Source: a bacterium (GTDB taxonomy: Bacteria; Patescibacteriota; Minisyncoccia; Phycocordibacterales; CALRBL01). Taken from it: a stretch of DNA of 64,000 bases. Positions 2,826-40,116 of the stretch are shown piece after piece. A program made the translations under genes and the position numbers. Positions within the stretch are counted from its first letter, which is position 1; the number at the start of each line of letters is the position of its first letter. Location: NCBI GenBank assembly GCA_027487075.1, contig JAIYEG010000002.1, positions 79,202 through 143,201 of the forward strand. Reading direction: 5' to 3'. Under the pieces are notes generated by a model. That model was given only the letters and a program-made list of their open reading frames with translations. It was not told the origin of the DNA and made no database searches.

Positions 2826-2844
2826 TTTTGTGGTATTGTGTGGC

Positions 2845-3190
2845 TCTGCGCCAGACAATCGCTCTCGCTTGCGAGGGAGGAAAGTCCGAACACAGCCAGC
2901 TTCGGCTGGAGCACGTAGCGGGTAACGCCCGTCTTGTCATATTCAAAAAGGGGCAAAGAGGTGCGAGCAGTGACGCTTGAAGCGAAAGCAGAGAGCATCC
3001 ATAGCAATGTGGATGAATCCATGTGGTAACACACGGAGTGAAACGGCAAAATCCTTACGTCTGTGCAAGGCCGTGTCCCACGAAGTAATTCGTGGTGAAG
3101 TGCCGCTCGAGGGTGTCAGCGATGACACTCCCAGATAAATGATTGTCACCACAGCAATGTGGCACAGAATTCGGCTTATCGGCGCAGGAC
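2845..3190 (+). ncRNA. rnpB: RNase P RNA (bacterial type A-like)
   Basis: Conserved blocks in native order: gggaggaaagtccg (CR-I GGAGGAAAGTCCGGGC), ggtaacgcc, ggagtgaaacgg, acagaattcggcttatcgg (ACAGAANCCGGCTTA). P1 pairs ctgcgcc (2846-2852) with ggcgcag (3181-3187). An extended -10 tgGTATTGT sits just upstream. The ORFs called across this region are spurious. Confidence 0.85.
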
Positions 3191-3197
3191 ATACATG

Positions 3198-3754: not shown

Positions 3755-6622
3755 ATGACACGTCAATACGACCCGAAAGACATTGAACCCAAGTGGCAAA
3801 AAGCGTGGGAAAAGCAGGGAATTTACGCCACCAAGGAAACCGCGGACAAGCCGAAATACTATGTACTCGACATGTTTCCGTATCCGTCTGGCGAAGGGCT
3901 TCATGTGGGGCATCCCAAGGGCTACATTGCCACCGATGTGATCTCGCGTATGAAGCGTATGCAAGGCTTCAATGTACTCCACCCGATGGGGTTTGATGCA
4001 TTCGGTCTTCCAGCCGAGCAATATGCAATCAAGATGAAGACAAACCCTGCGGTAGCAGTGGAGAAAAACGTCGCACGCTACAAGAAGCAGCTTGAAATTC
4101 TTGGTTTTGATTACGATTGGTCACGTGAAGTGAATACCACCGATCCTAAATACTATAAATGGACGCAATGGATCTTTTTAAAATTGCTTGAAAAAGGTTT
4201 AGCAGAAGAACGCTATGAACCGATCAACTGGTGTCCTGTTGATAAGACCGGGCTTGCGAATGAAGATATTGAAGATGGAAAGTGTGAGCGCTGTGGTGCA
4301 GTGGTTGAAAAGCGCCTCATGAAGCAGTGGGTGCTTAAGATTACGCAGTATGCCGATCGCCTGCTCAGTGACCTCGATGCGAAAAAAGAAGACGGCACAC
4401 CACTTCTCGATTGGCCAGAGTCAATCAAGGAAAGCCAGCGAAACTGGATTGGAAGAAGTGAGGGGGCTGAGATTGATTTTAAGTTGATCGAAGCGGGATC
4501 TAAAAATGAAATCGCATGTGCGACGGTGTTCACAACACGAGCAGACACGCTTTTTGGTGTGACGTATGTGGTACTTGCTCCTGAACACTCTCTTGTTGCT
4601 GAACTTCTTGAAAAATCTTCGAATAAAAAAGAGATTGAGGCTTACATTAGTATGACAAAGGCTAAGACTGAAATTGATCGTACTGATACAACAAAAGAAA
4701 AGACTGGAGTAGAGCTTAAGGGTGTTCGAGCTATCAACCCAGCAAATAATGAAGAAGTTCCGGTGTGGATTGCTGATTACGTACTTGCAGATTATGGAAC
4801 AGGAGCAGTAATGGCGGTACCAGCGCACGATGAGCGTGATTTTGTATTTGCAAAGAAGTTTGCATTACCTATTAAGCATGTAGTGGCTCCATATCATATA
4901 CAAGGGGGTAAACATGTGCCACGTGAAGGCATTGAAACTCTTACACGCAGAACTGTCACAGTTATTCTTGAAAACAAGAAAAATGAAGTACTTATTATTG
5001 CTGAACCGGATACCACAACTCTTCTTGGTGGAGGAATCGAAGAAGGGGAGATGCCTACAGAAACTGCACTGCGCGAAATCAAAGAAGAAACAGGATATGC
5101 TGATGTTGAGGTAAAAGAAACCATTCTTGATAACTTCTTTGCAAAAGGATACCGATATACAAAAGGTAAAAATACTTTCACAAATGACTATATCATTCAT
5201 GCTGTATTAAAAAGTGATACACAAGAGAAAAGCGAGATTGATGAAGGTCGTCACCACATAAAATGGGTACCGAAAGAAAATGTACTTAATGAAATACCTC
5301 ACACACATAGTCACTATGAAATCTTCAAGTTATTTTTAAAACCTCATCATACCGGTGATGGATTACTTGTTAATTCATGTTCATTTGATGGAAAAAATTC
5401 ATCAGACGAAGTAAGAAAGGAAATTACCAAACACGTCGGGGGCCGATGGGTGACCAAGTACAAACTCCGCGACTGGGTGTTCTCACGTCAGCGTTATTGG
5501 GGTGAGCCAATTCCTGTGGTGCATGATGAAAATGGTTTGGTGATTCCCCTCAAAGAAGAGGATCTTCCGCTTGAACTTCCAATGGTAGAGCACTATGAGC
5601 CGACTGATACGGGAGAATCTCCGCTCGCTAACATTCCTGAATGGGCAGAGTTTGAAGTCGATGGCTACAAATTTAAACGAGAGACTAATACCATGCCGCA
5701 ATGGGCGGGTTCTTCGTGGTATTACCTCCGCTATATGGATCCGCATAATGACACGACGCTCGTCGACTCTGAAAAAGAAAAATACTGGAACTCAGTAGAC
5801 CTTTATGTGGGCGGTGCAGAGCATGCAACGCGCCACCTTATCTACGCACGCTTCTGGCACAAGTTCTTGTATGACATCGGTGTGGTATCAACCCTCGAAC
5901 CATTCACCAAACTTGCAAACCAAGGGCTTATCACTGCATCAGATGGTCGCAAAATGTCGAAGCGCTGGGGTAATGTGGTGAATCCTGATGAGATGGTAGA
6001 CACCTTCGGCGCTGATTCGATGCGCCTCTACGAGATGTTCATGGGTCCATTTGACCAAGCTATCGCGTGGAATACGAATGGGGTAGTGGGAACACGTCGC
6101 TTCATCGAAAAAGTATGGAAGCTCTCATCAAAAGTGACTCACGATGCACCGTCACATCCCGCGCTGCATCGCACCATCAAAAAAGTTTCTGAGGATATTG
6201 CCGGCATGAAGTTCAACACCGCGATTTCGTCTATGATGATCTTCGTGAATGATCTTGAGAAGGCTGCCTCGGTCTCATGTGCCGATATGGAAGCATTGCT
6301 CAAACTTCTCGCGCCATTTGCTCCTCATGTTGCGGAAGAGCTCTGGGAAGTGCTTGGCAATGAAGGAAGTATTCACCTTTCATCGTGGCCGACCTTCGAT
6401 ACTTCGAAGCTCGAGGAAGATGAGGTCACTATCGCTGTGCAAATCAACGGAAAGACACGCGAAACCATGCGTGTTGCCCGCAATCTTGACGAACAGGTGG
6501 TTGTAGACATGGCAAAGGGAAGTGAGGGGCTCAAAAAATGGATCAAAGAAGGTCAGATCAAGCGGGTGATCTGGGTCAAAAACCGCCTCCTCAACCTCAT
6601 AATTGACTTATCAGCAGAATAA
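3755..6622 (+). CDS. leuS: Leucyl-tRNA synthetase carrying an in-frame Nudix hydrolase domain insertion
   Basis: HIGH-region PYPSGEGLHVGHPKGY, zinc knuckle CERCGAVVE, editing domain (TTRADTLFGVTYVVLAPEH ... AVPAHDERDFVFAKKF), KLRDWVFSRQRYWGEPIP and KMSKRWGNVV. It is 955 aa versus roughly 860 typical. An extra segment of about 150 aa between the editing domain and the LRDW motif carries a canonical Nudix box GGGIEEGEMPTETALREIKEETGY. Confidence 0.95.
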   Translation: MTRQYDPKDIEPKWQKAWEKQGIYATKETADKPKYYVLDMFPYPSGEGLHVGHPKGYIATDVISRMKRMQGFNVLHPMGFDAFGLPAEQYAIKMKTNPAVAVEKNVARYKKQLEILGFDYDWSREVNTTDPKYYKWTQWIFLKLLEKGLAEERYEPINWCPVDKTGLANEDIEDGKCERCGAVVEKRLMKQWVLKITQYADRLLSDLDAKKEDGTPLLDWPESIKESQRNWIGRSEGAEIDFKLIEAGSKNEIACATVFTTRADTLFGVTYVVLAPEHSLVAELLEKSSNKKEIEAYISMTKAKTEIDRTDTTKEKTGVELKGVRAINPANNEEVPVWIADYVLADYGTGAVMAVPAHDERDFVFAKKFALPIKHVVAPYHIQGGKHVPREGIETLTRRTVTVILENKKNEVLIIAEPDTTTLLGGGIEEGEMPTETALREIKEETGYADVEVKETILDNFFAKGYRYTKGKNTFTNDYIIHAVLKSDTQEKSEIDEGRHHIKWVPKENVLNEIPHTHSHYEIFKLFLKPHHTGDGLLVNSCSFDGKNSSDEVRKEITKHVGGRWVTKYKLRDWVFSRQRYWGEPIPVVHDENGLVIPLKEEDLPLELPMVEHYEPTDTGESPLANIPEWAEFEVDGYKFKRETNTMPQWAGSSWYYLRYMDPHNDTTLVDSEKEKYWNSVDLYVGGAEHATRHLIYARFWHKFLYDIGVVSTLEPFTKLANQGLITASDGRKMSKRWGNVVNPDEMVDTFGADSMRLYEMFMGPFDQAIAWNTNGVVGTRRFIEKVWKLSSKVTHDAPSHPALHRTIKKVSEDIAGMKFNTAISSMMIFVNDLEKAASVSCADMEALLKLLAPFAPHVAEELWEVLGNEGSIHLSSWPTFDTSKLEEDEVTIAVQINGKTRETMRVARNLDEQVVVDMAKGSEGLKKWIKEGQIKRVIWVKNRLLNLIIDLSAE

Positions 6623-6637
6623 TGATAAAAAAAAGTC

Positions 6638-7666
6638 ATGGCACTCATTACTTTTAAACCAAAGCAGGTCAGCAAGCGTCTTATTGGATCGCTCCAGTCA
6701 CGTGCCAAGGAAGTTATCATCAATCGGTATGGTCTTGGCGCAGACAGCAAGCGTATGACTCTCGAGGCTATCGGAGACATGTATCACATCACTCGTGAAC
6801 GTGTGCGTCAGATCGAAAATGCCGCCCTTTCTAATATTCGAAAGTCAGAAGAGTTTAAAAAAGAAAAAGAAGTATTTGCTGAACTTGAAGCAGTCCTCAA
6901 GAAGGCCGGAGGCATTGTTGCTGAAGAAGATTTTCTTAATCACCTCACCAAAGACAAGAGTACTCAGAATCACCTCAACTTTTTGCTTGTAATCGGCGAC
7001 TCTTTCCGCAAGGAACGTGAAGACGATGAATTCAAGCACCGATGGTATGTCGATCCTGAACTTTCAAAGAAGGTTCATGAGTCGCTCCGCAAGCTCTACA
7101 GCAGCCTTTCAGATGACACGCTCGTATCTGAATCAGAACTCATCACGCAATTCCTTGAATATCTTAAGGATGTTTCAGATGAATACCGCCAAGAAGAAGT
7201 GATCAAGCGATGGCTCTCAATCTCAAAGAACATTTCGAAGAATCCGCTCGGTGAATGGGGTCTTGCGTCATCATCAAACGTACGTGCAAAAGGTATTCGT
7301 GACTATGCATTCCTCGCAATGCGAAAACATGGTTCTCCTATTCACTTCCGTGATATTGCAAAACTCATTAGCGAACTTTTCAACAAGAAGGCTCACCCAG
7401 CAACCACTCACAACGAGCTCATCAAAGATAATCGTTTTGTGCTTGTAGGACGCGGTCTCTACGCACTTTCTGAATGGGGATATCTCTCAGGTGTGGTAAA
7501 AGATGTGATCAAGAAAATCCTCGAAAAGAATGGTCCTCTTACTCGTGAACAAATCATCGATAAAGTGATGAAAGAGCGCTACGTAAAAGAAAACACTATT
7601 CTCGTCAATCTCCAGAATCCGAAATTCTTCAAGAAATCGAAGGACGGAAAATACTCTGCTGTATAA
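6638..7666 (+). CDS. Sigma-70 region 4-type HTH protein with an N-terminal HTH and no sigma region 2
   Basis: N-terminus ...RMTLEAIGDMYHITRERVRQIENAALSNIRK matches sigma-70 region 4.2. The roughly 260 aa that follow have no motif I recognise. Confidence 0.55.
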   Translation: MALITFKPKQVSKRLIGSLQSRAKEVIINRYGLGADSKRMTLEAIGDMYHITRERVRQIENAALSNIRKSEEFKKEKEVFAELEAVLKKAGGIVAEEDFLNHLTKDKSTQNHLNFLLVIGDSFRKEREDDEFKHRWYVDPELSKKVHESLRKLYSSLSDDTLVSESELITQFLEYLKDVSDEYRQEEVIKRWLSISKNISKNPLGEWGLASSSNVRAKGIRDYAFLAMRKHGSPIHFRDIAKLISELFNKKAHPATTHNELIKDNRFVLVGRGLYALSEWGYLSGVVKDVIKKILEKNGPLTREQIIDKVMKERYVKENTILVNLQNPKFFKKSKDGKYSAV

Positions 7667-23832: not shown

Positions 23833-23866
23833 AAAAGGGCTCCCACTCGGGGAGCCCTTTCCTTTT
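23833..23866. terminator. Bidirectional terminator hairpin
   Basis: aaaaGGGCTCCC-actcg-GGGAGCCCtttcctttttg. Confidence 0.5.
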
Positions 23867-23869
23867 TGC

Positions 23870-38017: not shown

Positions 38018-38037
38018 AATCTTTCTCAAATCGAGTC

Positions 38038-38065
38038 TTGACTTAACCCTTTTATTAACTACAAT
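38038..38065 (+). promoter_or_regulatory. Near-consensus sigma-70 promoter (TTGACT-16-TACAAT) firing into a terminator about 10 nt downstream
   Basis: ttgact taacccttttattaac tacaat at 38038-38065. No ORF follows before the terminator at 38092-38120. Confidence 0.45.
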
Positions 38066-38091
38066 GCAGGTACATTCGGCATTCGCCGCGA

Positions 38092-38120
38092 CCCCGCCCG
38101 CAAGGGCGGGGAATTTTATT
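38092..38120 (+). terminator. Intrinsic terminator (CCCCGCCC-gcaa-GGGCGGGG + aattttattt)
   Basis: Perfect 8-bp GC stem, GNRA loop and a T-run on the plus strand only. Overlaps the 3' end of the minus-strand toxin gene. Confidence 0.65.
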
Positions 38121-38505
38121 TATATAAGGAATGAAACTGTGCTTTTACTTTTTTAAAATCATTTCCATCAACTTGACCGAGGCGAGTAAAAAGTCTTCTG
38201 TAATCTATAGTTCGCACCCGGTGTAAACAAACCTTCATTTCTGTATTATCTAAAATTAATGGTACATACCATGATCCTTCTTTTATCTGAGTAGTCGTAG
38301 GCGCAACCAAGTAGAAACCACGAGCTAATTTCTTAAGAATCAAACCAGGTCTTGTATAAACAGAGCTTTTACCATTAATTTCAGAACCAATATTTTGACC
38401 AAAACTTATCCACCATATATCCCTTTCACTGACCAACGGAGGAGAAGCTTCGACTGAATGCAGTTTTACCTTTACTGCTATCCACTTTAAAAACACATCA
38501 ATCAT
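38116..38505 (-). CDS. MazF/PemK-family endoribonuclease toxin-like protein with no adjacent antitoxin gene
   Basis: ...ERDIWWISFGQNIGSEINGKSSVYTRPGLILKK...FYLVAPTTTQIKEGSWYVPLILDN...KVCLHRVRTIDYRRL matches the PemK/MazF pattern (RPxLVL, PxTS/T, IRTID.RRL). AT-rich. There is no upstream ORF on the same strand. Confidence 0.7.
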   Translation of the reverse strand: MIDVFLKWIAVKVKLHSVEASPPLVSERDIWWISFGQNIGSEINGKSSVYTRPGLILKKLARGFYLVAPTTTQIKEGSWYVPLILDNTEMKVCLHRVRTIDYRRLFTRLGQVDGNDFKKVKAQFHSLYK

Positions 38506-38541
38506 GTACTCATTTTAGAGTATGGGAGTAAAATGCTACCG

Positions 38542-38843
38542 AATATATCTTCAGTTTATCCTAAATTTGGAGAAATAATCTCCTCATGTCAGGATATACA
38601 CGGAACCTCTTACGTGTGAGAGTAACACGTCGATAATCGACCTGAGCCACAATGTCGGCCGTATCTATAACGGTCCGGTGGAAGGAAGAGTCTGCGGCCT
38701 ATCAGCTAGTTGGTGTGACGTAGTAAGTAGCGTCGAGCGAAGATGACGTCGAGTCCAGGTTCACCTGGAGGAGGGTAAATGCCTACCAAGGCTATGACGG
38801 GTAGCGAGAACAGAAGATGAACTCGCCTCACACAAGGGAATCC
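38542..38843 (+). pseudogene. Orphan 16S rRNA 5'-domain-like fragment (E. coli positions about 8-330 equivalent) with a 58-nt insertion
   Basis: 16S blocks in native order: agtttatcct, gtgagagtaacacgt, gcggcctatcagctagttggtg, then the insertion, then ggtaaatgcctaccaaggctatgacgggtagc, then degenerate. Ends in its own terminator. No remainder of the SSU gene follows. Confidence 0.7.
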
Positions 38844-38878
38844 CGGCGGCGTGTCATGTACACGCCGCCGCTTTTTAT
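38844..38878 (+). terminator. Intrinsic terminator ending the 16S-like fragment
   Basis: cGGCGGCGTGT-catgt-ACACGCCGCCg + cttttt. Its T-run overlaps the stop codon of the convergent gene. Confidence 0.6.
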
Positions 38879-40116
38879 ATATTATTTCCCGCAACAAACC
38901 CCGTCGTCCAGCAGAGCTGCAGGCTGTACCCGCCGCTTGGCCTATCAATATTCAAAATATCTCCCACGAGGTAAAGATTCGGGAAGAACCGTGACTGCAT
39001 AGTCTTGAAATCTACTTCATCGAGCTTCACGCCGCCTGAGGTCACGATGGCCTGGTCTGTTCCTAAAAGTCCTTCTACATGAAGCGGGATATTCTTGAGC
39101 GTCTGGATGAGCTTGATGCGTTGTTCACGTGTGATATTGCTGTTGGTGGTATCAAGATCAATTCCTGAAAGCGTGAGTACCGGCTCGACGAGTGTCGAAA
39201 GTATGATCGTGCCAAGCGCATTCTTCAGCTTCTTTTTATTCTCTTTTGCAAAAAGTTCCATGAGCATCGTATTGATGCGGTCATGACCTTGGTTGGGAAG
39301 GAGATCGAGCCCGATCACCACCTCGCCATATTTCAACAGCTCGCCGACATCCTGGCTCATATTGAGCACCATCGGTCCAGAAACTCCGAAATGCGTGAAG
39401 AGTACACGCCCCGTCTTTTTGCTCACCGCGCTTTCTTGCTTCACGCCATTTTGAAACAGCGTCAGTCGGACCTCCTGAAGCGTCGCTCCTTGGAGTTTCT
39501 TGGTCCACTCATCTTTGAGTGCTACGGGCACGAGCACCGCTTGAGGCTCGATGACGGTGTGGCCGATCTGCTTCAACCATTCGAAACCATCACCCGTCGA
39601 TCCTGTTTCTGGCCGAGACTTTCCGCCGGTTGCCAGTACATATGATTTTGCCTTGAGGATTTCGCCGCCTTTGAGGGTGACACCTACGATCTCTGACCCT
39701 TCCTTAACAAACCCCGTCACCTCTGCATTTGAACGCACCTCGACGCTTTGCGATCGCATATATTCCACAAGTACATCCCACACCGACTGCGCTTTGTCCG
39801 TGACAGGGAAGACGCGTTTCTCGTTTTCCACTTTGGTCTCCATGTCGCGCAGATGAAAGAACTCAAGCGACTCCTTGACGCTGTATTGTGAGAATGCCGA
39901 GAACAGATACTTGCCATCATCCTTGAATTTGGCGAGGAGTGCGCGGTCATCGAACTCGGCATTAGTCACATTACAACGTCCGCCACCAGTGATGAGGAGT
40001 TTTTTGCCGAGAGTGTCATTTTTCTCGAGCAGCAACACCGAAAGGCCGCGCTCCGCAGCGCGTCCAGCTGCCATCATGCCCGATGGCCCGCCTCCGATGA
40101 CGATTACATCGTACAT
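38875..40116 (-). CDS. NAD(P)/FAD-dependent oxidoreductase, HI0933/BaiN family
   Basis: MYDVIVIGGGPSGMMAAGRAAERG dinucleotide-binding motif. Full-length HI0933-like layout ending ...GYSLQLCWTTGFVAG. Confidence 0.85.
   Translation of the reverse strand: MYDVIVIGGGPSGMMAAGRAAERGLSVLLLEKNDTLGKKLLITGGGRCNVTNAEFDDRALLAKFKDDGKYLFSAFSQYSVKESLEFFHLRDMETKVENEKRVFPVTDKAQSVWDVLVEYMRSQSVEVRSNAEVTGFVKEGSEIVGVTLKGGEILKAKSYVLATGGKSRPETGSTGDGFEWLKQIGHTVIEPQAVLVPVALKDEWTKKLQGATLQEVRLTLFQNGVKQESAVSKKTGRVLFTHFGVSGPMVLNMSQDVGELLKYGEVVIGLDLLPNQGHDRINTMLMELFAKENKKKLKNALGTIILSTLVEPVLTLSGIDLDTTNSNITREQRIKLIQTLKNIPLHVEGLLGTDQAIVTSGGVKLDEVDFKTMQSRFFPNLYLVGDILNIDRPSGGYSLQLCWTTGFVAGNNI

Follow-up and report, generated by a model that had tools for sequence, protein, structure and literature searches.

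Ribosomal proteins (r-proteins) can exert autogenous control through mRNA leaders that mimic their binding sites on rRNA, as described for the rpsF leader recognized by S6:S18 (PMC3895269), and this leader mimicry has been the subject of a review (Meyer 2018, as cited in PMC11109978). Known leaders of this kind are short 5' UTR motifs of r-protein operons, usually convergent mimics that share limited identity with rRNA. On the 16S rRNA itself, S17 interacts with helix 11 and S20 binds h6, h8, h9 and h10 (PMC4604426). In 16S rRNA the h7/h11/h12 junction is the binding domain of uS17, a primary assembly protein, and bS16 contacts the base of h12. Two other kinds of sequence have to be considered when an rRNA-like stretch is found outside an rRNA operon. 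rRNA pseudogenes are partial copies that decay uniformly, while type III RNA antitoxins (ToxI-type) are structured non-coding RNAs with a terminator that lie next to the gene of an endoribonuclease-fold toxin; they consist of tandem direct repeats, upstream of the toxin gene and on its strand, and co-occur with the toxin family. Some MazF homologues cleave rRNA. Our search of the literature for stand-alone rRNA mimics, selected orphan 16S fragments and CPR rRNA-like RNAs found no precedent.

Here we analyzed an element of about 326 nt located next to a PemK/MazF-like gene in a 64-kb stretch of DNA (the window) from a CPR bacterium (Paceibacterota) with a tiny genome. The element shares with the h7/h11/h12 junction of 16S rRNA the order of its blocks and its architecture, and in h11 and the strands beside it its sequence is that of the common bacterial 16S consensus. 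It departs from a 16S rRNA by its size (~325 nt) and by its terminator, which falls at about 16S position 350, with no other rRNA domain. It either lacks counterparts of h6 and h8-h10 (the bS20 site) and of the five-way junction (the uS4 site) or has other sequence in their place, and it is dispensable and patchily distributed. With r-protein leaders it would share a principle, a non-ribosomal RNA reproducing the rRNA site of an r-protein in order to bind the free protein; in contrast to them, it is a 200-300-nt rRNA descendant, standing alone or 3' of non-r-protein genes (ABC-F, mnmA) rather than in the 5' UTR or an intercistronic region of the operon of the bound r-protein. It resembles an rRNA pseudogene in being an incomplete copy that looks non-functional and lies outside any rRNA operon; unlike one, it has blocks that are identical among members and stems that covary, and its truncated design is found again at an unrelated locus. 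Like a type III antitoxin, it is a structured sequence with a terminator beside an endoribonuclease-fold toxin gene, but it has no tandem repeats, lies on the strand opposite to the toxin gene and does not co-occur with the toxin family.

Results

Boundaries and layout of the element

The features of the locus are collected in Table 1. A preliminary description, made from the letters of the window only, had placed the start of the element at 38506. Comparison with relatives that lack the element moved this boundary to about 38551: the 45 nt from 38506 to 38550 align to these relatives and are the native upstream region of PemK, whereas the rest does not align. The HI0933 and PemK genes are separated by 369 nt in the window, compared with only 30-49 nt in L086 and L087. 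Relative to this compact HI0933-PemK junction of the closest relatives, the element is an insertion. All the sequence features quoted in the preliminary description were found where it had placed them, including gtgagagtaacacgt (38616-38630), a 22-nt block gcggcctatcagctagttggtg (38694-38715) and ggtaaatgcctaccaaggctatgacgggtagc (38774-38805). The divergent orientation relative to the MazF-like gene was likewise as described, and so was the terminator hairpin with its T5 tract, except that the stem, first counted as 10 bp, measures 11 bp. The convergent HI0933 gene does end inside the T-run, its stop codon occupying 38875-38877.

Table 1. Coordinates of the element, its predicted modules and the adjacent features, numbered from the first letter of the window
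Feature	Position	Strand	Description
Promoter convergent with PemK	38038-38065	+	conserved; not part of the element
Small RNA convergent with PemK	~38072-38122	+	~50 nt, with terminator; not part of the element
PemK/MazF-like gene	38116-38505	-	129 aa; PF02452, E 7e-11; not part of the element
Whole element	38551-38876	+	~326 nt, non-coding
5' leader	38551-38613	+	AGTTTATCCT at 38553-38562 and TCAGGAT at 38589-38595, resembling the 16S 5' end
Leader hairpin	38569-38583	+	GGAGAAATAATCTCC, between the two 16S-5'-end-like motifs (sequence and MFE fold)
Closing helix, 5' strand	38614-38620	+	GUGUGAG, pairs with CUCACAC at 38827-38833 (MFE fold)
Block A	38620-38629	+	GAGTAACACG; 16S ~107-118; covered by the SSU-model alignments of the window copy and L096
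h7-like arm	38628-38696	+	base helix CGUCGAU (38628-38634) / GUCUGCG (38690-38696); extension and tip variable
Tip hairpin	38656-38676	+	CGGCCGTATCTATAACGGTCC, at the end of the h7-like arm
Block B	38694-38715	+	GCGGCCTATCAGCTAGTTGGTG; h7 3' strand and h11 5' strand; 16S ~228-255
Insertion in h11 loop	38716-38773	+	58 nt, two hairpins
Insertion hairpin 1	38717-38750	+	stem GACGU/ACGUC around AGTAGCGTCGAGCGAA (38726-38741)
Insertion hairpin 2	38755-38768	+	CCAGG-UUCA-CCUGG
Block C	38773-38805	+	GGGTAAATGCCTACCAAGGCTATGACGGGTAGC; h11 tip and 3' strand; 16S ~260-290
h12-like hairpin	38804-38826	+	GCGAG-N13-CUCGC
Closing helix, 3' strand, and mini hairpin	38827-38843	+	CUCACAC (16S CACAC after h12), then GGGAAUCC at the h13 position
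Intrinsic terminator	38844-38876	+	perfect 11-bp stem 38844-38870 (9 GC pairs), 5-nt loop, then T5

The element has no reading frame common to its members. Upstream of the window copy we found no convincing sigma-70 promoter, the best candidate being TGTACT-N18-TAAAAT, which ends at 38534 and scores 8/12 by eye. The window copy contains no tandem repeats, and its mapped ends (38551 and 38876) show neither the terminal inverted repeats nor the target-site duplication that MITE- or IS-derived ends would have. Its neighbours in the window are genes for ABC-F, PemK, HI0933 and tRNA synthetases; no r-protein gene and no integrase, transposase or reverse transcriptase (RT) gene was found within 10 kb.

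Kinship with 16S rRNA

In a permissive Rfam scan, positions 38618-38829 aligned collinearly with SSU positions 89-295, with a score of 14.6 bits (E 0.12 when corrected for 4227 families, or ~1e-4 by our own arithmetic if the SSU clan alone is taken as the hypothesis). The member at locus L096 aligned with positions 107-310 of SSU_rRNA_bacteria at 29.4 bits (E 6.7e-7). Both scores lie under the gathering score of 50 bits for the SSU rRNA gene (RF00177 / CL00111), at which a scan of the whole window returned only RNase P; the covariance-model check proposed in the preliminary description gave no SSU match at gathering score and a collinear alignment under permissive conditions. When L084, L087 and L096 were pooled for the permissive scan, the weak SSU match disappeared; with L096 alone it came back. 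nhmmer with the E. coli 16S rRNA gave no match in the window or in the loci, the E. coli blocks being too divergent, while a profile built on the family detects the h11 region of a genuine 16S rRNA (L099, E 1.9e-8). The collinear homology with helices h7, h11 and h12 of the 5' domain shows that the element descends from the start of a 16S rRNA (the first ~350 nt).

The preliminary description had read the element as the first ~330 nt of 16S rRNA in order. This reading agrees with the collinear alignment to SSU positions 89-295. Two places need a caveat: the 27F-like end bears a weak likeness to 16S positions 8-30 that does not reach significance by itself, and the stretch assigned to h8-h10 is not 16S-like. 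A leader comparable with that of the window copy is found in L084 (AAGTTCTTCTGCCCAG..CGAAC), and L096 has none. Other short matches of the window copy to universal 16S sequences are at chance level (16S 1187-1200 at 38742-38755, and 16S 1391-1403 inside the terminator).

The alignment ends at model position ~295-310 and the terminator follows. As first described, no further SSU sequence comes after it: the permissive Rfam scan detected no other rRNA-like piece, SSU or LSU, within the 64-kb window. A full SSU of ~1500 nt with its central, 3' major and 3' minor domains is not present, and the element is not an rRNA gene. We also considered a split or fragmented 16S gene and rejected it, since the element is missing from close relatives and is without most of the domain.

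Conserved blocks, covarying stems and fold

Four distinct members of the family were found: the window copy (also seen as L001 and L002), L084 (the same as L092), L096, which is complete, and L087, which is partial. Their alignment was built module by module; MAFFT misaligned L096. At the four-fold degenerate sites of HI0933, the window, L087 and L096 genomes are only 33-40% identical, which corresponds to saturation. In contrast, the members are identical at 10/10 positions in block A, at 92-100% in block B and at 93-100% in block C. Block A and the 16-nt core of block B, CCTATCAGCTAGTTGG, are the same in the window copy, L084 and L096, and ACCAAGGCTATGACGGGTAGC of block C is the same in 4/4 members. 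Because the four-fold sites are saturated, neutral decay cannot explain this identity. The linkers differ completely among members. The 3' tails of L087 and L096, which are not 16S-like, are 87% identical over 76 nt, against 33% at neutral sites.

The base helix of h7 is kept in the three complete members, with pair 5 being GC, AU and AU and pair 7 being UG, UG and GC, and it aligns to the h7 pairs of the SSU model in the window copy and L096. L084 carries both hairpins of the h11 insertion, with compensatory stems CAAAGA/UCUUUG and CCGAG/CUCGG. Pairing in the base of h7, in the hairpin at its tip and in the two hairpins of the insertion persists through double compensatory changes, a covariation read from few sequences (four members), while h11, which has internal loops, is invariant. 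h12 is variable, being longer and branched in L096 and missing in L084; the CACAC that comes after h12 is common to the window copy and L084. The MFE folds of the window copy and L096 predict the same four-way junction. The closing helix of the window copy corresponds to the short 16S helix that closes the h7/h11/h12 junction; among the other members it has no conserved position. L084 folds differently, with a weak z-score (-1.0). For the window copy, the folding z-scores of the plus (-3.05) and minus (-3.78) strands did not discriminate between them. We took the 16S sense (+) as the strand because several G.U pairs are valid only there and because the terminators of three members are so oriented (T5 in the window copy, T8 in L096 and T7 in L087); L084 has a weaker hairpin.

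The best explanation of these patterns is that selection kept only block A, the base of h7, all of h11 and the base of h12, and that the peripheral arms were swapped for lineage-specific hairpins.

Hairpins resembling 23S rRNA

The stretch that had first been read as 16S h8-h10 matches 23S rRNA instead. The tip hairpin of the h7-like arm is identical at 20/21 positions to E. coli 23S 1905-1925 (helix 69); no other stretch of the 64-kb window matches 23S better (E 0.009), and its 34.2 bits exceed the 28.2 bits reached at most in 100 shuffles. L084 and L096 also form a hairpin at this position, whose stem differs and whose loop resembles that of the window copy only loosely. The helix-69-like sequence is clear in the window copy only. 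Within the h11 insertion, 38726-38741 is identical at 15/16 positions to 23S 241-256 (0.01 expected by chance in the window), a loop of domain I, in the H13/H14 region. Its counterpart in L084 is AGTAGTGGCGAGCGAA, and the block is limited to these two members, L096 being devoid of the whole h11 insertion. The 58-nt hairpin insertion was correctly located by the preliminary description, but its reading as a generic CPR expansion segment does not fit a 23S-like block that is missing in L096. Each 23S-like copy forms the loop or body of a hairpin with its own stem. Unlike in 23S rRNA, the two are grafted on a scaffold of 16S type, the helix-69-like one where the h7 arm ends and the other inside the h11 loop. 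An internal repeat (72% between 38727-38751 and 38801-38825) was considered as the origin of the 23S-like block and not adopted, as it is missing in L084.

A hypervariable slot and a patchy distribution

The slot between HI0933 and ABC-F is hypervariable, with at least 8 states in genomes that share 80-94% identity in their HI0933 proteins. At L098 it is empty, with 8 nt between the two genes. The element is also missing from other close relatives (L086, L088-L091, L097) and from the relatives of L084, and therefore it is dispensable. L084 stands in an unrelated context, between mnmA and an MGMT-like gene, both co-oriented with the element. Carriers are scattered in the HI0933 tree, so that the distribution does not track the host tree, and the h11 insertion is common to the window copy and L084, from distant hosts, and not to L096, which occupies the same slot as the window copy. 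This patchiness and the insertion shared by distant hosts point to horizontal movement, which alone could account for part of the block identity.

The window holds one copy, and 750 kb of related DNA holds none beyond the four members. Viral contigs scanned with family-specific signatures gave zero matches, blastn against phage records gave nothing meaningful, and blastn against plasmids returned only genuine 16S genes, over the h11 stretch alone. The metagenome search pattern, which demanded a long h11 insertion, picked up L084 only; it was too narrow, as L096 has a normal h11. Independent assemblies agree on the element: it is 100% identical, with both junctions, in L001 (SRR30952591), and 100% identical over a partial cover in L002 (SRR16126832), while the L084 homologue is identical in JGI and ENA assemblies.

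The PemK/MazF-like neighbour

Searches by blastn, nhmmer, fuzzy block search and the family profile found the element in 0/80 loci with PemK homologues. Conversely, L096 and L084 carry it with no PemK nearby, and L086 has PemK without it. Where both occur, the element is upstream of PemK in the window and downstream in L087. The link with PemK/MazF is incidental. The preliminary description had called the MazF-like gene antitoxin-less, which is now doubtful, since the PemK family has a conserved small-RNA gene convergent with it: the promoter, the RNA and its covarying terminator are conserved in 33 PemK loci, and the 5' end of the RNA contains UACAU.

Discussion

The helices bound by S20 are those not retained in the element, and the retained core coincides with the helices that are reported to make up the uS17 domain and with the place where bS16 makes contact. 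Our tentative reading, which we hold at somewhat less than even chances, is that the element is a small ncRNA gene or 3'-UTR module with a terminator of its own, belonging to a small family in Paceibacterota (CPR), a domain-scale rRNA mimic that would most probably bind uS17, a candidate suggested by the E. coli proteins that bind the same 16S helices. The RNA would fold into the h7/h11/h12 junction and be bound by the protein or proteins that recognize this junction on nascent 16S rRNA, most probably free uS17 and possibly bS16. Once bound, it would serve as a decoy or as a sensor of the free r-protein pool, either as a separate trans-acting RNA or as part of the ABC-F mRNA transcribed from upstream, at its 3' end. 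Among the origins offered by the preliminary description, an expressed rRNA mimic is thus the one that the evidence favours; we infer transcription itself, as well as the binding of protein, which protein binds and what role the RNA has in the cell. The uS17 decoy reading leaves the 23S-like hairpins unexplained. A wider reading would take them in, although we regard it as doubtful: a new class of ncRNA made of stand-alone 16S-5'-domain mimics, with a selected uS17/bS16 junction and exchangeable hairpins including 23S copies, spreading horizontally into hypervariable CPR intergenic slots. Such RNAs would be multivalent decoys or sensors, and their targets would be ribosome-binding proteins: r-proteins, factors for assembly or modification, or toxins aimed at rRNA.

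Other explanations have to be weighed against an r-protein-binding mimic. The element could be selfish, an rRNA-derived sequence that moves horizontally (SINE- or MITE-like, or a recombination cassette) and has no function for the host, its blocks reflecting recent spread or a need of the transfer itself. The precise insertion relative to relatives, the empty site at L098, the many states of the slot, the scattered carriers, the h11 insertion shared by distant hosts rather than by same-slot L096, the similarity of the L087 and L096 tails and the relatives of L084 without the element would all fit such mobility. We nevertheless consider it unlikely, if to be taken seriously, given that terminal inverted repeats, target-site duplication, tandem repeats and nearby mobility genes were all absent, that the window has a single copy with few members elsewhere and none in viral contigs, and that the wholly different linkers imply transfers that are not recent; identical blocks and covarying stems would in any case still need selection on the RNA. 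A neutral 16S 5'-end pseudogene, left decaying by a rearrangement of an rRNA operon, would be collinear with 16S ~1-357 at a similar length, would score far under the gathering threshold and would be dispensable in relatives, all of which is seen. The divergence of the element is however neither even nor at the neutral rate, as the conserved blocks and compensatory stems stand beside saturated neutral sites. In addition, the same shortened architecture is found at the unrelated L084 locus in a distant host, the terminator is intact and no rRNA remnants lie nearby. Patchy gene conversion from the real 16S could in principle refresh the blocks, but it would not account for the inserted hairpins that covary or for the conserved tail of L087 and L096, which is not 16S. 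We thus consider the decayed relic proposed in the preliminary description improbable, and its argument that a clean terminator and retained helices speak against random decay holds.

Very improbable in our view is a purely local action, in which, in the window, the sense RNA or its strong hairpin would work as a cis-antisense or insulator on read-through HI0933-PemK transcripts and the likeness to 16S would be irrelevant. In its favour, the element runs antisense to HI0933 and PemK at three loci (the window, L087 and L096) and supplies a terminator between convergent genes having none at the empty site L098, but the L084 element is co-oriented with both of its neighbours and the 100% conservation of 16S blocks is left unexplained. 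The preliminary description had also proposed a decoy for the MazF rRNA endonuclease. Two points speak for the element as a decoy substrate of the PemK/MazF-like protein beside it, or as an RNA antitoxin against that protein: its position next to PemK in the window and L087, and the cleavage of rRNA by some MazF homologues. Its absence from the PemK loci surveyed and from L086, its presence without PemK in L096 and L084, its opposite sides in the window and L087, an organization unlike that of type III antitoxins, and the small RNA that the PemK family already has of its own make this hardly credible. As for an assembly chimera, it was a prior suspicion only, rRNA-like sequence being a classic source of misassembly; the identical recurrence of the element and its junctions in independent assemblies, together with the syntenic positions of other members, refutes it, and we give it practically no weight.

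If the members do function as rRNA mimics, no stand-alone mimic of domain size would have come before them; the bacterial mimics known so far are short leader motifs tied to r-protein operons. On the wider reading, rRNA mimicry would extend from short cis-acting leaders to trans-acting mosaic 'mini-rRNAs'. The ribosomes, rRNA genes and regulation of Patescibacteria are atypical and poorly understood, and a functional element would offer a handle on the sensing or buffering of free r-proteins in these bacteria. The mosaic of SSU and LSU hairpins raises the question of how rRNA pieces recombine and get reused. Exact 16S primer- or probe-like blocks outside rRNA genes also matter for rRNA annotation and for chimera filters. 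As a by-product of the analysis, the ~50-nt RNA convergent with a widespread 'solo' PemK/MazF family is a candidate for a new toxin-RNA pairing.

An orphan 16S-derived element with its own terminator

The element, a non-coding stretch resembling the 16S 5' domain, lies within the 369 nt that separate the PemK/MazF-like gene from the HI0933-like gene, and the T-run of its terminator contains the HI0933 stop codon. All the sequence features quoted in a preliminary description of this DNA were found in this gap. The Rfam scan gave a divided answer: at the gathering score the window contained no rRNA, its sole match being an RNase P RNA, but a permissive scan of the region aligned the element collinearly with the SSU model, including the pairings of 16S helices h7, h11 and h12, scoring no more than 14.6 bits (E 0.12 after correction for 4227 families). 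A permissive scan of the whole window detected no further rRNA-like piece in the 64 kb. Given this sub-gathering collinear alignment and the lack of any other such piece, the element is, as had been described, an orphan piece descended from the 16S 5' domain with its own terminator, and no rRNA gene. No convincing sigma-70 promoter was found for the window copy.

Features of the window (an empty cell means that no value applies or is available)
Feature	Position	Strand	Remarks
RNase P RNA, bacterial class A	2843-3194	+	119 bits, E 7e-36
ctRNA_p42d match (plasmid antisense RNA)	23833-23869	+	weak, sub-threshold: 27.6 bits (gathering score 50); E 0.075
ABC-F/HI0933 slot	38018-38874
Convergent RNA site	38038-38122	+	promoter and RNA
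Convergent-RNA promoter	38038-38065	+
Convergent RNA, ~50 nt	~38072-38122	+	predicted
PemK/MazF-like gene	38116-38505	-	PF02452, E 7e-11
Element	38551-38876	+
SSU-collinear segment	38618-38829	+	SSU 89-295
h7-arm tip	38656-38676	+	CGGCCGTATCTATAACGGTCC, 20/21 to E. coli 23S 1905-1925 (helix 69)
Short 16S-block match	38742-38755		GATGACGTCGAGTC, 13/14 to 16S 1187-1200; chance level on its own
Intrinsic terminator of element	38844-38870	+	11-bp perfect stem, 9 GC pairs, then T5
Short 16S-block match	38857-38869		TGTACACGCCGCC, in terminator stem, 12/13 to 16S 1391-1403; chance level on its own
HI0933-like flavoprotein gene	38875-40116	-
HI0933 3' coding end	38925-38947		GGCCTATCA, identical to start of block B; TGTACCCGCCGC, 11/12 to terminator arm

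The two short matches to universal 16S blocks are notable in view of the mosaic make-up of the element. The two matches in the HI0933 3' coding end are probably due to chance; they could also represent microhomology with a bearing on insertion here.

Members of the family

Two Logan contigs from other samples (L001, SRR30952591; L002, SRR16126832) also encode the PemK protein; both contain the element at 100% identity, and L001 spans both junctions. A metagenome collection, scanned for the two h11 blocks with a long insertion between them, yielded one locus, L084, where an element of about 328 nt, with no rRNA in its vicinity, is flanked by an mnmA-like gene and a small MGMT-like gene; this sequence recurs in an independent ENA assembly (L092). 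Close relatives fetched via the flanking HI0933 gene (80-83% identical proteins) provided two more members. L096 carries a complete 309-nt element on the same strand as ABC-F; it begins right after the stop codon of that gene and terminates with a hairpin and T8 abutting the HI0933 stop. The L087 element, truncated by the end of its contig, is found on the other side of PemK, with a hairpin and T7 terminator. L096 aligned to SSU_rRNA_bacteria 107-310 at 29.4 bits (E 6.7e-7), which puts the family's descent from 16S on a statistically secure footing. Searches by blastn, fuzzy block matching and a family nhmmer profile found no further members in about 750 kb of related DNA or in the rest of the window.

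Anatomy of the RNA

All complete members have in common three 16S-like blocks, A (GAGTAACACG), B (CCTATCAGCTAGTTGG) and C (ACCAAGGCTATGACGGGTAGC), with start-to-start spacings from A to B of 78, 68 and 78 nt, against about 124 nt in real 16S. The minimum free energy folds of the window copy and L096 form the same four-way junction, made of a closing helix, an h7-like arm, h11 and an h12-like arm. Seven pairs at the h7 base are kept in the three complete members with compensatory changes (pair 5, GC/AU/AU; pair 7, UG/UG/GC), and h11 does not vary, matching the common 16S consensus exactly; the remaining arms are variable. The RNA reads on the 16S-sense strand, as indicated by the terminators and by several conserved pairs that are G.U or U.G. 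The members share no reading frame.

Two of the variable arms carry 23S-like hairpins in the window copy. The h7-arm tip of the window copy is the best 23S match of the whole 64 kb (E 0.009; 34.2 bits, against a maximum of 28.2 among 100 shuffles); at the corresponding position, L084 and L096 form hairpins whose stems differ and whose loops show no more than a loose resemblance. In the window and L084, the h11 loop bears an insertion of about 58 nt forming two hairpins, the first of which presents AGTAGCGTCGAGCGAA and AGTAGTGGCGAGCGAA, respectively. Both match E. coli 23S 241-256 at 15/16 positions and deviate from it at different bases, so that their consensus is the 23S sequence. Both stems differ in a compensatory manner between the window and L084 (first, GACGU/ACGUC vs CAAAGA/UCUUUG; second, CCAGG/CCUGG vs CCGAG/CUCGG). 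L096 has an h11 of normal length, lacking the insertion. As for h12, it is a simple hairpin in the window, longer and branched in L096, and absent from L084.

A hypervariable slot

The backbone around the element is conserved and ordinary (HisKA, TyrRS, ABC-F, slot, HI0933, TrpRS, ABC transporter, Asp/AsnRS), with no mobility or r-protein genes within 10 kb. Comparison of the window with L086-L091 and L096-L098 (HI0933 proteins 80-94% identical) revealed at least eight different contents in the slot that separates the convergent genes ABC-F and HI0933: nothing in L098 (8 nt), PemK in L086, four unrelated ORFs in L088, L089, L090/L091 and L097, the element alone in L096, and PemK with the element in L087 and the window. 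L088 and L089 carry different cargo next to an identical HI0933 protein. The element lies on the ABC-F strand in all three slot carriers. Counted from ABC-F, PemK precedes the element in the window, whereas in L087 it comes after the element, on the HI0933 side. Since carriers are scattered over the HI0933 tree, the h11 insertion is common to the distant hosts of the window and L084, and the nearest mnmA relatives of L084 (63-64%) have no element, the patchy distribution points to horizontal movement or to repeated loss. The element ends showed neither terminal repeats nor target duplications nor tandem repeats.

At locus L078, extra copies of the HI0933 C-terminal coding end (3841-3918 and 4472-4609; aa 386-411 at 81% and aa 367-412 at 76%) lie on either side of the PemK gene, the intact HI0933 gene being at 5498-6826. 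This looks like the footprint of serial insertions at the HI0933 3' end.

Selection, possible role and rival explanations

Among the genomes of the window, L087 and L096, identity at the four-fold degenerate sites of HI0933 is no higher than 33-40%, which amounts to saturation, yet block A is identical (10/10) across members, blocks B and C are 92-100% and 93-100% identical, and the non-16S tails of L087 and L096 agree at 87% over 76 nt. Uniform neutral decay of an orthologous relic cannot yield such values, so the decayed relic previously considered was not borne out and, second among the rivals, is very improbable. Either purifying selection acts on the RNA, or the element moved between genomes after these diverged; even the latter would call for selection at the RNA level, because linkers have fully diverged while blocks are identical and stems covary.

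The element keeps block A, the h7 base, h11 and the h12 base. The matching part of 16S is the uS17 binding domain, and bS16 contacts the h12 base, while bS20 binds h6 and h8-h10 and the uS4 site is the five-way junction (PMC5591316, PMC4604426); neither the bS20-bound helices nor this junction is kept. The best explanation, which we propose tentatively, is a domain-scale rRNA mimic that would capture uS17, possibly with bS16, and so work as a decoy or a sensor; it would do this either in trans or as the 3'-terminal part of the ABC-F mRNA. We infer its transcription, protein binding and physiological role. The uS17 proposal does not explain the 23S-like hairpins; these suggest that rRNA hairpins may be presented more widely to other factors that bind ribosomes, a reading that is rather unlikely.

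Foremost among the rivals, although improbable, is a selfish rRNA-derived mobile element. A local antisense or insulator element ranks third, slightly below the relic. A PemK decoy or antitoxin is fourth and hardly credible, because none of the 80 genome loci with homologues of the PemK protein (50-64% identity) carries the element, and L096 and L084 have it without PemK. The association that had been drawn with the toxin is, on the same grounds, incidental. An assembly chimera, also raised earlier, fails against the identical copies in L001 and L002 and the junctions spanned in L001; it comes last, with negligible probability.

As regards known classes, neither score nor completeness fits an rRNA gene, the location is wrong for an r-protein leader, and the conservation pattern is not that of a neutral pseudogene. 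A type III antitoxin was rejected (no repeats, opposite strand, no co-occurrence with the toxin), as was a MITE (no terminal inverted repeats or target-site duplication). The nearest likeness, in the supposed manner of working, is to rRNA-mimicking r-protein binding sites, from which the element differs in being a true rRNA descendant, domain-sized, stand-alone and mosaic. Rfam has no family for it, and full-text literature searches found no description of such elements. It would be a case of rRNA mimicry, and may constitute a new class should the reading as a mosaic decoy prove right.

A predicted small RNA convergent to PemK

In the solo PemK family, a conserved sigma-70-type promoter (TTGACa-N17-TAtAaT) lies 3' of the gene on the opposite strand. 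It is followed by a predicted RNA of about 50 nt that starts with (U)ACAUUCGGCAUUCGCCGCGRCC and ends in a covarying terminator hairpin whose U-tract runs into the PemK stop codon. The whole arrangement occurs at 33 loci (sites in the window and 3' of PemK in L003-L078, L086 and L087). The 5' 22 nt are >90% conserved, whereas the PemK proteins are only 50-65% identical, and Rfam has no match for this RNA. UACAU/ACA at its start are MazF recognition motifs. The RNA is a candidate antitoxin or pseudo-substrate of PemK, and the toxin is thus probably not antitoxin-less as had been stated. Five loci (L017, L024, L034, L038, L070) have two to three PemK-like paralogues (30-37% identical) in tandem beside the conserved family member.

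Finally, the RNase P RNA of the window has a 45-nt insertion and several helices shorter than the model.
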